This document shows, piece after piece, positions 21,642 to 25,221 of a stretch of DNA of 51,901 nucleotides; position 1 is the first letter of the stretch; each line of letters starts with the position of its first letter. Source of the DNA: a candidate division WWE3 bacterium (lineage in GTDB: Bacteria; Patescibacteriota; WWE3; UBA101185; UBA10185); assembly GCA_003599255.1 (NCBI GenBank), contig QZJF01000012.1, positions 1-51,901 of the forward strand, given 5' to 3'. Both the position numbers and the translations under genes were made by a program. The notes beneath the pieces were generated by a model. That model saw only the letters and a list, made by a program, of their open reading frames with translations. It did not search any database and was not told where the DNA came from.

Positions 21642-22577
21642 ATGAAAAATTCCGGGTATTACATTAAAACGCTTTTTCTGGCTCTCATAATCTTTTTTGT
21701 ATCTTACTTCCTGACAAAAACAATTTCCGAACCTATAAAAAATCAGAATTATTTTTCTTTCTCCGCAGAATACGCTGCAAAGATTATTTTATTGATGCTT
21801 GTTAACCTCTACGTATTCTCGCTTACAGTAGGCGCATGGAATAAGTGGGAACAATATATAATTGTTTCAATCCCGGTCTCACTGGCAATTTTCTTTGCAA
21901 TATTTCCGATAAGCCCCGCTTATGCCTTTATTTTAGCCTTCTTATCAGGAACACTTATATCCTTTGATGTATACAAATCAACAAGAATCAGTCAGCTTAT
22001 GATCAGATTTGATCCGAAAATCATTTTAAGATTGTCGACAAGCGGTTTATTGTTTGTTTTCAGTATCGTGGGTGGGGTGCTCGTGATACTTTACTCGTAT
22101 GTGTCTCCTGAATTTAACATTGGAAAAGAGATATCAAGTATTGTTGAGAAGCCTCTAAAATCAATCGTAGAAACACAGTTAAAAAACAATTTAGAGCAGC
22201 AACTTATACCGCTTAATTTAACAGGTAAAGAGGAAGTAAATTCAAGTGTAGAGGACTTGCTAAAACAATTCGGACTGGAACTCGAAGCGGAAGAAATCAA
22301 AAGCAACGTAAGCGAAACGGAGATTACTGAACAGATAATACAAAACCTGGATATTAAAAGTATAGTAGAAAAGGAAATAAACGGTTTCGTTGGGCCGTAC
22401 AAAAACCTGGTGCATCCCTTACTTGCAGTTCTTATGTTCGCACTGTTCCAATTTTATGCCGCAATAGCCCTGTTTCTTTATATTATTACAGTAGATGGAA
22501 TATTTTGGCTTGCACGTAAAACAGGGTTTTTTAAATCCACTCAAATTGATGTAAAAAAAGAGATACTAAAATTCTAG
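21642..22577 (+). CDS. Polytopic membrane protein of unknown function
   Basis: About six hydrophobic segments with one soluble loop. Confidence 0.75.
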   Translation: MKNSGYYIKTLFLALIIFFVSYFLTKTISEPIKNQNYFSFSAEYAAKIILLMLVNLYVFSLTVGAWNKWEQYIIVSIPVSLAIFFAIFPISPAYAFILAFLSGTLISFDVYKSTRISQLMIRFDPKIILRLSTSGLLFVFSIVGGVLVILYSYVSPEFNIGKEISSIVEKPLKSIVETQLKNNLEQQLIPLNLTGKEEVNSSVEDLLKQFGLELEAEEIKSNVSETEITEQIIQNLDIKSIVEKEINGFVGPYKNLVHPLLAVLMFALFQFYAAIALFLYIITVDGIFWLARKTGFFKSTQIDVKKEILKF

Positions 22578-23246
22578 TTCTTCTATTCTTTTTGCGGTGT
22601 CTATCATGTAAATACCTACTTTTGTTCTGACCAGTGACACTAAAGTTCCCCTAGATCCTATCTTCTCTCCAATATCCCGTGCTAAGGATCTTATATAAGT
22701 ACCGTGGGAACACCTGACATTTAGTTTAACAGTTGGTATTTGTTTTACGCCTTCGACGGTAGTTATTTCTTTATTTTCAAACCTCAGTATCTCAATGGTA
22801 TAAATACTTACAGTTTTTATCGGAAGTTGCTCTGTATCAACCGGTTTCCCGGATCTGGCCCGTCTGTATAGGGGTTTTCCTGAGACTTTGACTGCAGAAT
22901 ATAGTGGAACTCTCTGCTCAATTTGTCCTGTAAAACTGTTTAAAACGGGAGGTAATACCTTTTTAACATAATCCAACGAGGGTATATTAGCGATTTCAGG
23001 AATCACCTCCAAATCGTTAGTCTCAGAACATATTCCAAATCCAATTTCAGCAACATATTCCTTTTCCGTTTTCAGAACTTCGTCCTGTTTCTTTGTATCC
23101 GATCCTGTCAGAACAACTAAAACACCCTCAGCCAAAGGATCGAGCGTTCCCGCGTGTCCTACCTTCTTAATCCCGGATTTTTTTCTAAGCTGATACACAA
23201 TGTCGAAACTCGTAATTCCTTTCGGTTTGTAAATGTTTAAAATCAC
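22566..23246 (-). CDS. truB: tRNA pseudouridine(55) synthase
   Basis: KVGHAGTLDPLAEG, PLYSAVK, GTYIRSLARD; GTG 23246 lies 6 nt after TGnCATAAT. Confidence 0.95.
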   Translation of the reverse strand: MILNIYKPKGITSFDIVYQLRKKSGIKKVGHAGTLDPLAEGVLVVLTGSDTKKQDEVLKTEKEYVAEIGFGICSETNDLEVIPEIANIPSLDYVKKVLPPVLNSFTGQIEQRVPLYSAVKVSGKPLYRRARSGKPVDTEQLPIKTVSIYTIEILRFENKEITTVEGVKQIPTVKLNVRCSHGTYIRSLARDIGEKIGSRGTLVSLVRTKVGIYMIDTAKRIEELEF

Positions 23247-23266
23247 CTTCACATTATGCCAAGTTC

Positions 23267-23295
23267 TTGACACCACTACAATCAATACGTATAAC
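23267..23295 (+). promoter_or_regulatory. sigma70 promoter TTGACA-N17-TATAAC
   Basis: Perfect -35, 17-nt spacer, -10 ending 7 nt before ATG 23303. Confidence 0.75.
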
Positions 23296-23302
23296 TAAAA
23301 CA

Positions 23303-23365
23303 ATGGATTATTCCAAGTCTATACAATACACACTCACTACTACAACCCCTATAATGGGAAAATAA
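23303..23365 (+). CDS. Candidate Thr-rich leader peptide MDYSKSIQYTLTTTTPIMGK
   Basis: ACA CTC ACT ACT ACA ACC = 5 Thr in 6 codons; stop lies 62 nt before thrS. Confidence 0.55.
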   Translation: MDYSKSIQYTLTTTTPIMGK

Positions 23366-23427
23366 CTGTATCAAACATTTATATGTCTTTCAGACAAACA
23401 AAGTATAATAATTAGGAGAAGAATAAA

Positions 23428-25221
23428 ATGAGCAACATTAAAGTAATTGAAAAACTAAAAGACGATCCGCTAATGCCGCTAAGACACACTGCAGAACATA
23501 TCCTGCACATGTCTATGCAGGAGTTGTATCCGCAACTCAAAAAGGTTATGGGGCCACCAATAGAAGACGGTTTTTATTTTGATTTTGATCTGGAAGAAAA
23601 AATTACACCTGAGGATTTCGAAAAAATTGAAAAATTAATGCAGGAAATTGTTAATTTAGACCTACCGGTAACCCGCCTTGAGGTAACACTGGAAGAGGCT
23701 ATGGATATATTTAAGGATAATGAATATAAACTCCAATGGCTTGATGAAATAACCGACAGAAGCGAAAAGATCTCAATATATGAGATTGGGAGCCCCTCAG
23801 GAGAACATTATGACCGCGATCTCTGTGCAGGACCTCATGTAAATAGCACAGGGGCTGTTAAATCTTTTAAGCTGTTAAGTATAGCAGGAGCATATTGGAA
23901 AGGTGACGAGAAAAACAAAATGCTTCAGAGAATCTACGCTACCGCGTTTGATAGTGATGAGAAATTGGAAAAGTATCTCCAGAATCTCGAAGAAGCCAAA
24001 AGAAGAGATCACAGAAAATTAGGTAAAGAACTGGATCTGTTTACATTTTCAGAATTGATAGGCAGTGGATTTCCGCTTTATACTCCAAAAGGAGCCTTGA
24101 TAAGAAGGCTTGTAAATGAATATGTTGAAGAAATCCAAAGCGCACACGGATATCAGCAAGTCTGGACACCGCAAGTAGCAAAAGCTGATTTGTTCAAGAT
24201 TTCCGGGCACTACGATAAATACAAAGATGATATGTTTGAGGTTCGTTCTCACTACAGTAAAGAAGAATTCTACTTAAAACCCATGAATTGTCCACAGCAC
24301 ACACAGATATATGCTAGTAAACAGAGAAGTTACCGTGACCTCCCTTTAAGAATGACGGATTTTGCAATGCTCTATCGGGACGAGAAACCGGGTGAATTGA
24401 ATGGTTTAGCCAGGGTAAGAGCATTTTCACAGGATGATTGCCACGTTTTCTGTACAGAAGATCAGGTTGATGCAGAAATTGATATGGCTTTAAACATGAT
24501 AAAAGACATCATGAACACATTCGGCTTCAAATACAGATACAGATTATCAACCAGAGATCCTGAACATCCGGAAAAATTCCTCGGGGATCCTAAGATGTGG
24601 GATAAGGTTGAAAAGTGGGCTGAGGTTATCATGGAAAGAAATAACATTGAGTATTTCCCCGGTGTCGGCGAGGCTGCCTTTTATGCCCCGAAAATGGATT
24701 TAATGGCAACCGATGCTCTGGGACGGGAATGGCAGCTGTCCACCATACAGATTGATTACGTCATGCCGGAAAGATTCGGGCTGGAATACATAGATAAAGA
24801 CGGGGAAATAAAAAGACCTGTAATGCTACATAGGGCAATTATCGGCTCTCCTGAAAGGTTTATGATGATTCTGATTGAGCATTTTGCAGGAGCTTTTCCC
24901 GTATGGCTTTCTCCTGTACAAGCCCAGCTGATACCGATATCAGACAAACACGTTCCATATGCAGAGTCAGTGCTAGAAAATCTCAAAGAAGTAGGTATAC
25001 GCGCCGAATTAAACAGTAAAACTGACACAATGCAGGCAAAAATCAGAGATGCACAGCTGGAAAAGATACCTTATATGTTAATAGTAGGGGACAGGGAAGC
25101 CGAAAAAGGGGAAGTCAGCTTAAGATTAAGGACCGGGGAAGATTTGAAGTCAAAACCGCTTCCTGAGGTTATTGAAGGAATTAACAAAATCAGATTGACC
25201 AAAAGCCTGGATTTATGGTAA
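23428..25221 (+). CDS. thrS: Threonine--tRNA ligase
   Basis: RHTAEH, DLCAGPH, RDHRKLG, KPMNCP, QDDCH, HRAIIGS; SD AGGAG. Confidence 0.98.
   Translation: MSNIKVIEKLKDDPLMPLRHTAEHILHMSMQELYPQLKKVMGPPIEDGFYFDFDLEEKITPEDFEKIEKLMQEIVNLDLPVTRLEVTLEEAMDIFKDNEYKLQWLDEITDRSEKISIYEIGSPSGEHYDRDLCAGPHVNSTGAVKSFKLLSIAGAYWKGDEKNKMLQRIYATAFDSDEKLEKYLQNLEEAKRRDHRKLGKELDLFTFSELIGSGFPLYTPKGALIRRLVNEYVEEIQSAHGYQQVWTPQVAKADLFKISGHYDKYKDDMFEVRSHYSKEEFYLKPMNCPQHTQIYASKQRSYRDLPLRMTDFAMLYRDEKPGELNGLARVRAFSQDDCHVFCTEDQVDAEIDMALNMIKDIMNTFGFKYRYRLSTRDPEHPEKFLGDPKMWDKVEKWAEVIMERNNIEYFPGVGEAAFYAPKMDLMATDALGREWQLSTIQIDYVMPERFGLEYIDKDGEIKRPVMLHRAIIGSPERFMMILIEHFAGAFPVWLSPVQAQLIPISDKHVPYAESVLENLKEVGIRAELNSKTDTMQAKIRDAQLEKIPYMLIVGDREAEKGEVSLRLRTGEDLKSKPLPEVIEGINKIRLTKSLDLW

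Follow-up and report, generated by a model that had tools for sequence, protein, structure and literature searches.

A candidate Thr-codon leader peptide directly upstream of thrS in a candidate division WWE3 bacterium

In Escherichia coli, pheM-pheST is a leader-peptide attenuator of synthetase genes, and thrL, the leader peptide of thrABC, senses Thr-tRNA through a run of Thr codons; thrL controls biosynthesis genes and has Ile codons also. Here we describe a short open reading frame (ORF) rich in Thr codons that lies directly upstream of thrS, the gene for threonyl-tRNA synthetase (ThrRS), in contig QZJF01000012.1 of a candidate division WWE3 bacterium; the window, as we use the word, is the whole 51,901-nucleotide (nt) stretch that was analysed. 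We read positions 23267-23427 of the window as a probable ribosome-mediated attenuator of thrS that would sense charged tRNA-Thr, and we put the probability of this sensor role, as distinct from the way in which the signal is read out, at about 0.72. Comparison with related sequences establishes a predicted leader ORF together with its frame, its leaderless promoter geometry, its Thr run, an adjoining hairpin and an exclusive link to thrS; the direction of regulation and the readout we infer.

A preliminary description of this DNA, made from the letters alone, had placed the promoter P1, the ATG at 23303, the ORF, its Thr run and stop, the AGGAG and a second TATAAT, and reading the sequence again confirmed every one of these positions. 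The features needed in what follows are these:

23267-23295, plus strand: candidate promoter P1, with TTGACA at 23267-23272, a 17-nt spacer and TATAAC at 23290-23295

23303-23365, plus strand: predicted leaderless leader ORF of 20 codons plus TAA, MDYSKSIQYTLTTTTPIMGK*

23315-23394, plus strand: span matched by the covariance model R1 (54.1 bits, the sole match in the window's genome)

23330-23347, plus strand: Thr-codon run ACA CTC ACT ACT ACA ACC, in which five of six codons are Thr

23347-23358, plus strand: small hairpin abutting the Thr run, with CCC (23347-23349), loop TATAAT and GGG (23356-23358), 3 pairs

23378-23391, plus strand: TT(A/C)ATAT-like element (here TTTATAT) and then a T-rich tract, both high-information columns of the alignment

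23404-23409, plus strand: proximal -10-like box TATAAT, candidate second promoter P2, by sequence reading

23414-23418, plus strand: AGGAG, the Shine-Dalgarno (SD) sequence of thrS, by sequence reading

23428-25221, plus strand: thrS, 597 aa, with Pfam domains tRNA-synt_2b, HGTP_anticodon and tRNA_SAD

The -10 box of P1 is separated from the leader ATG by 7 nt, the leader stop codon (TAA, 23363-23365) stands 62 nt ahead of the thrS ATG at 23428, and the TTTATAT element proper (23378-23384) begins 19 nt past the hairpin. The TTGACA-N17-TATAAC site is absent from the output of an automated promoter scan, which demands T at the last position of the -10 box. The hairpin, which is formed by the CCCC that follows the Thr run, was overlooked in the preliminary description.

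With pheM-pheST, and with the candidate leader-peptide attenuators of trpS and leuS predicted in Streptomyces (PMC1262725), the window element shares a short ORF with a cognate-codon run directly upstream of the cognate synthetase gene, as well as the expected logic that stalling yields more synthetase. Unlike them, the window's lineage has no terminator or antiterminator, its ORF appears to be leaderless rather than SD-led, and its target is thrS. The likeness to thrL lies in the Thr-codon run of a leader peptide that would sense Thr-tRNA, but the window element has no terminator and no match to the Rfam family of thrL (RF00506, Thr_leader). The leaderless polycysteine small ORFs (sORFs) of mycobacteria (bioRxiv 10.1101/834739) come close in other respects: the mRNA begins, as by promoter geometry it would in the window, at the start of the sensory sORF, the cognate codons are consecutive, there is no intrinsic terminator and control is, or would be, exerted in cis at the level of the operon. 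However, that Cys system frees a sequestered ribosome-binding site (RBS) and serves a biosynthesis locus, whereas here tests for RBS sequestration across the related loci are negative and the target is a synthetase. The element therefore belongs neither to the classical attenuators, whose terminator/antiterminator feature is absent, nor to the mycobacterial type, whose RBS-duplex feature is absent.

Two further groups of systems bear on the comparison. In Rho-dependent leader-peptide switches such as tnaC, mgtL and speFL, as would be the case here, a stalled ribosome keeps Rho off the nascent RNA, and the window offers unstructured, G-poor RNA and a genome with rho; the stall, however, would come from a run of hungry codons and not from a nascent peptide that senses a small molecule, and outside the Thr run the composition of the window is only weakly like a Rho utilisation (rut) site. 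The T-box leaders of thrS in Firmicutes act on the same gene, as does the tRNA-like thrS operator of E. coli, and both sense the same or a related quantity, but the window has no T-box and no conserved anticodon-like loop, and sensing would proceed through translation instead of through binding of tRNA or ThrRS. A search of Rfam with E up to 10 over 22800-23900 returned only three chance-level eukaryotic matches, with neither a T-box (RF00230) nor Thr_leader (RF00506) among them, and at the gathering score 16 loci gave tRNAs only and no Thr_leader. These empty Rfam results, a single small hairpin in RNAalifold and terminator-like sites at just 4 of 29 loci bear out the earlier remark that neither a terminator hairpin nor a T-box is to be seen. 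A full-text literature search, whose coverage leaves out most subscription journals, turned up no paper that describes a Thr leader ahead of thrS, or leader peptides from the candidate phyla radiation (CPR).

The evidence for the leader comes from relatives. Taking thrS with its flanks from 40 of them and reading the 250 nt ahead of each start, we found a Thr-rich upstream ORF followed by a hairpin in 16 of the 29 relatives with upstream DNA. These are 13 of the 18 relatives from the same family and all 3 from the sister family, and none of the 8 from other families of the class is a clear case. The ThrRS proteins of these leader-bearing relatives are just 45-59% identical to that of the window, and conservation of the leader is therefore not residual similarity. 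An automated leader criterion flags 15 of the 16, missing the 3-pair stem of the window, and over all loci it flags 18 of 103; the flag at L023 is a false match within the truB region. In a larger set of 31 aligned leaders, all directly upstream of thrS, the ThrRS proteins are 45-73% identical.

We then built a covariance model (R1, from alignment A1) that spans the Thr run, the hairpin and the next 35 nt, and ran it over 134 genomes of the class. R1 has exactly one match per genome in 36 of them, which comprise 31 of the 86 genomes of the family (counting the window's own genome, G000), all 3 of the sister family and 2 of the 12 of one further family, with none among the other 33. All 30 matches that were fetched stand immediately ahead of thrS and share its strand; 13 of these come from genomes outside the training of the model, with L121 repeating the training sequence L037, and among the 6 of 36 that were not fetched one (G017) adjoins pieces of thrS. 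The leader is also kept where the upstream gene is other than truB. Among 80 metagenome loci R1 found L146 and the truncated L148, and in the genome-contig set the thrS loci of outgroups (labelled Bacteroidota, Bryobacterales/Acidobacteria and others) have no Thr run with hairpin. The metagenome scan contained no ThrRS above 75% identity, so that no close relatives were at hand for nucleotide footprinting. The Thr-rich upstream ORF that the preliminary description would have looked for in relatives thus occurs at 16 of 29 loci and in 36 of 134 genomes, with synonymous ACN variation, and its proposal of a leaderless Thr-rich leader ORF of thrS as a candidate sensor of charged tRNA-Thr is strongly supported by this comparison.

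Within G000 (1.10 Mb in 25 contigs, 90% complete, from a small-genome lineage) the leader stands out. Runs of at least four consecutive ACN triplets number just 24 over the 1.10 Mb on both strands, and 14 short ORFs have strict leaderless promoter geometry, of which the thrS leader alone has five of six identical residues. A Thr-rich match at C7:22154 was discarded, as it lies inside a 1379-aa ORF. Neither the strict leaderless scan nor a crude short-ORF scan (109 candidates) revealed other cognate-run leaders ahead of synthetase genes in G000.

The promoter test asked for a -35 hexamer with at least 4 of 6 matches, a spacer of 16-18 nt, a -10 hexamer with at least 4 of 6 matches including A2, and 5-9 nt to an ATG or GTG from which the frame stays open to the hairpin. 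A promoter and start of this kind are found in the Thr frame at 22 of 29 loci and in each of the other two frames at 0 of 29. The promoters of the relatives are of sigma-70 type, most commonly TTGACN with a 17-nt spacer. Across G000, ORFs of at least 100 aa that open with ATG or GTG show a peak 6-7 nt downstream of strong promoters (10 cases); leaderless genes therefore occur in this genome and leaderless expression is plausible. At the 22 loci, promoter geometry makes it plausible that the leader transcript starts at its own start codon.

The distance from start to hairpin is held at 12-18 codons in the related leaders, the N-terminal residues vary, and in all leaders compared the stop codon falls in the hairpin loop or at most 15 nt past the hairpin. 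The last 10-11 codons ahead of the hairpin contain 3-7 Thr codons (mean 5.3; 29 leaders), and their usage (ACA 65, ACT 40, ACC 48, ACG 0) shows synonymous variation. ACG accounts for 0 of 153 leader Thr codons against 67 of 573 Thr codons in thrS genes; the tRNA-Thr genes of G000 are GGU and UGU. At two loci, L026 (G029) and L051, the Thr-rich stretch and hairpin form the 3' end of a longer upstream ORF (~125 aa in L026), and there the sensor may be the tail of a real gene. A frameshift at hungry codons that would fuse the leader to ThrRS was considered and rejected: the thrS frame closes 4 codons upstream of its ATG (601 versus 597 aa).

The hairpin directly abuts the final Thr codon in every leader, and RNAalifold returns it as the only consensus structure of 17 leader-to-thrS stretches. 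Over the 31 leaders aligned to the model, 81% of cells pair and double changes occur at 3 of 5 pairs, and the covariation score of 0.174 compares with 0.060 +/- 0.016 for shuffles (0 of 500 reach 0.174) and with 0.055 or less when the pairing is slid, in an alignment that was fitted to the covariance model and is thereby biased toward structure. Variant arms include AGGCCT/AGGCCT, ACCCGC/GCGGGT, CCTCGC/GCGGGG and CGCCGC/GCGGTG, of which the last two contain G-U pairs and thus place the structure on the plus-strand RNA. Loop sequences are not conserved. The hairpin lies 57-114 nt from thrS in the other loci and 272 nt from it in L138 (G132), where an insert of ~200 nt, GC-rich and made of repeated palindromes, separates leader and gene.

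Beyond the hairpin, a TT(A/C)ATAT-like element follows after 17-20 nt in nearly all leaders of the 31-sequence alignment (+18 to +24 in the profile) and leads into a T-rich tract, and G is almost absent over the 24 nt downstream of the hairpin in the same leaders. By eye, we tried this element as the -35 of the proximal promoter, and as a -10 with the hairpin at the position of the -35; spacings and hexamers are inconsistent and both were rejected as unproven. The NusG-type pause motif TTNTTT is not enriched (5 of 29 loci versus 5.2 expected).

It is mainly because of the predicted thrS leaders of related lineages, set out next, that we read the window element as a Thr-tRNA sensor that would raise thrS expression. 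In five loci from other CPR or metagenome lineages (L041:1354-1500, L042:1340-1503, L051:411-504, L145:537-620 and L150:541-620), several with a leaderless start, a Thr-run leader before thrS is followed by a canonical terminator, that is, a GC hairpin and T tract; a hairpin-plus-T-tract criterion is passed by 5 of 6 distant Thr-leader candidates and failed by L163. By eye, L041 shows a first hairpin of CCC/GGG with the stop codon in its loop and then an antiterminator and terminator arrangement. Upstream of thrS in L039 (1218-1416) there is a T-box match below threshold (38 bits, E 2.3e-5; gathering score 93), which the regions upstream of thrS in L031-L034 resemble to the eye only. All of these may be T-boxes too divergent for Rfam to detect well in CPR. 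From the sequences compared, then, thrS in this part of the tree has predicted leaders of at least two kinds, textbook and terminator-less leader-peptide, plus one sub-threshold T-box match. A tRNA gene in L041 (1278-1353; Rfam tRNA, 67 bits) ends just before the Thr leader ORF, which starts 4 nt after it with no separate promoter evident, and this leader may be made by tRNA processing.

In the mechanism that we propose, P1, a strong promoter of sigma-70 type, would make an mRNA whose 5' end is the ATG at 23303 or lies beside it, and 70S ribosomes would translate the 20-codon leader, in which the Thr codons fill the final third, the GC hairpin comes next and the stop lies just beyond. With Thr-tRNA-Thr plentiful, the leader would be translated and vacated at once, and P1 transcripts would mostly yield no ThrRS. 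With Thr-tRNA-Thr scarce, a ribosome would stall on the Thr run, probably with a second one queued behind it; the stalled ribosome would lie over the hairpin's 5' arm and the greater part of the 5' RNA, and P1 transcripts would read into thrS. This read-through would add to basal expression from P2.

The preliminary description had cautioned that the TATAAT at 23404-23409 might drive thrS by itself. The caution is reasonable: of the 29 leader-bearing loci, 25 have a -10-like box between -45 and -5 of thrS, where shuffles would give 16.0, and by eye loci with no leader also have such a box 6-15 nt before the thrS start. At L037 and L051 it stands 6-8 nt ahead of the thrS ATG, which is leaderless geometry. 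We consider it likely that 23404-23409 is the basal promoter P2 of thrS and that P1 with its leader is an inducible addition. SD-like words occur between -18 and -5 at 23 of 29 loci, and in the window a transcript starting ~7 nt past the P2 box would cut into AGGAG, so that the SD would serve P1 transcripts only.

For the readout we favour, tentatively and at odds well short of even, Rho factor-dependent premature termination or polarity in the G-poor, unstructured leader and spacer, which the stalled ribosome or ribosomes would block. The 46 nt past the hairpin show less structure than shuffled sequence does (mean z +0.38), with a minimum free energy of 0 in 12 of 30. G000 has rho (Rho_RNA_bind, 86 bits), and rho matches occur in 122 of 134 class genomes and in 33 of the 36 with the leader. 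G000 has few canonical terminators: they are found at the ends of 11 of the 682 ORFs that reach 200 aa and in 1 of 682 random stretches, and GC hairpins with no T tail are not enriched at its ORF ends (60 versus 61). The leader is 23.1% C and 9.4% G and the spacer 11.1% G, compared with 19.9% G in non-ORF DNA, and by C/G ratio the window leader ranks among the top 1-2% of 80-nt windows. Several of these measures also speak against a Rho readout. The excess of C over G in the leader is mostly due to the ACN codons; its non-Thr codons are 16.2% C and 13.5% G, and the spacer is 12.7% C. Within its own locus the C/G percentile of the leader has a median of just 0.905 across loci, and 3 of the 36 leader-bearing genomes have no rho match, one of which, G027, is 97% complete.

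The next-likeliest readout, and a distinctly more doubtful one, is that the stalled ribosome would protect the mRNA from 5'-end-dependent decay by RNase J/Y. Stalled-ribosome leaders elsewhere are known to stabilise mRNA, and here the distance from the 5' end to the stall would be 12-18 codons; of the decay enzymes searched for, RNase J and RNase Y are both present and RNase E/G was not found. A new expression platform, consisting of the Thr run, the mini-hairpin and TT(A/C)ATAT 17-20 nt on, with no terminator/antiterminator or RBS sequestration, strikes us as about as doubtful. On such a platform the -10-like element may impose a sigma- or factor-dependent pause on RNA polymerase, which would last until the ribosome at the hairpin, by its state, settles whether the polymerase is released or aborts; alternatively, the pair of hairpin and TT(A/C)ATAT may be a decay or processing signal for RNase Y/J.

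A number of observations weigh against the proposed attenuator as a whole. Between leader and thrS the only terminator-like site is the leader hairpin itself, at 4 of 29 loci, and RNAalifold yields no second conserved structure. The hairpin of the window has just 3 pairs, compared with 4-6 in relatives; the TT(A/C)ATAT element, in spite of its set spacing, is unaccounted for by the model that we favour; and 7 of 29 loci do not pass the strict promoter test. With strict filters on R1, 55 of the 86 genomes of the family lack the element or have one that is not recognised, so that it is dispensable, and the proximal promoter could supply all of the thrS mRNA.

Among the explanations that compete with a ribosome-mediated attenuator of this kind, the one that survives best, while still unlikely, takes the hairpin as a weak non-canonical intrinsic terminator or pause site whose folding a stalled ribosome would stop. 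It draws on the invariable contact between hairpin and last Thr codon, on an enrichment of T at +4 to +8 past the hairpin (9-18 of 29 loci per position) and on the 4 of 29 loci where the hairpin with its tail passes as terminator-like. The first three bases past the stem, however, are mostly A (26, 21 and 18 of 29 loci), where the canonical terminators of G000 have T, and the stems have merely 3-6 pairs. Moreover, a non-stalled ribosome that reaches the stop would melt the hairpin too, so a single hairpin could hardly tell plenty from shortage.

Still less probable is translational attenuation, in which the RBS of thrS would be sequestered, by pairing of CCCCUA with UAGGAG or of a pyrimidine tract with the SD, and freed by a ribosome stalled on the Thr run. 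The pairing of CCCCUA with the SD had been offered in the preliminary description, and of its interpretation this is the part that failed, as the sensor core stood: the CCCC is the 5' arm of the covarying local hairpin and is locked in it, RNAalifold finds no long-range pairing, and anti-SD duplexes are no better than shuffles. In the window alone, masking the footprint of the stalled ribosome raises the unpaired probability of the RBS from 0.56 to 0.76, the SD-like words at 23 of 29 loci fit such a mechanism, and the leaderless polycysteine sORFs of mycobacteria work by freeing the RBS (bioRxiv 10.1101/834739). Over 19 loci, however, masked folding gives no consistent change in RBS accessibility, with a rise of at least 0.1 in the window and L003 only and a change below 0.1 or a fall in the other 17. 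Duplexes of spacer with RBS and of 3' arm with spacer are no stronger than shuffles either (mean z +0.30 and +0.35; 28 loci).

An untranslated RNA element, in which ThrRS, tRNA-Thr or some other factor would bind the ACN repeats and hairpin while the ORF was incidental, is a very improbable alternative. E. coli thrS is under the control of an RNA operator, the hairpin of the leaders is conserved and covaries, and ACN repeats could in principle pair with the anticodons of tRNA-Thr. Against such an element, 22 of 29 loci have a start placed by the promoter in the Thr frame while the two other frames have none, and the stop is always in the hairpin or at most 15 nt past it; A, T and C interchange freely at the third position of the ACN codons, no conservation is seen in the hairpin loops, no Rfam family matches, and the textbook attenuators of relatives share the Thr run. 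Finally, the idea that the ORF arose by chance in an A/C-rich region of divergent promoters, and that the proximal TATAAT alone drives thrS, can be dismissed: the region between divergent truB and thrS must indeed hold promoters, and -10-like boxes near thrS exceed expectation (25 of 29 loci versus 16), but the leader in 36 genomes, the frame test (22 of 29 versus 0 of 29) and the rarity of such runs genome-wide contradict it, and on this comparison the predicted leader ORF of thrS is not a chance product.

The CPR, or Patescibacteria, are uncultivated, with tiny genomes and gene regulation that is barely known, and the element, if we read it correctly, would be a clear and testable cis-regulatory device in one of them. 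It would also place a synthetase gene, thrS, under cognate leader-peptide control, which we did not find described in the literature searched. The thrS genes of neighbouring lineages, with T-box-like, textbook-attenuator or terminator-less leaders, would form a natural series in which to follow a change of readout, and the element is short and defined (~125 nt), which makes it amenable to cell-free or surrogate systems.

In the window thrS is the first gene in the order thrS, infC, rpmI, rplT, and the closest named relatives of its ThrRS are records of metagenome-assembled genomes from the Microgenomates group of the CPR. On the other side of the leader lies truB, in divergent orientation:

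22566-23252, minus strand: truB, Pfam TruB_N, with a likely start at GTG 23252 or 23246

23253-23281, minus strand: probable truB promoter, with TGG-CATAAT at 23261-23253 and a TTGTAG -35 at 23281-23276, 17 nt between them, by sequence reading

The start and promoter positions of truB are likely ones, read from the letters of the window. So placed, truB appears to be leaderless too, its own promoter standing immediately ahead of GTG 23252/23246, and the truB promoter and P1 would interleave within 23244-23281, each with its -35 inside the spacer of the other. In L014 and L023, which have no Thr leader, the truB-thrS spacer contains a long perfect GC hairpin instead.

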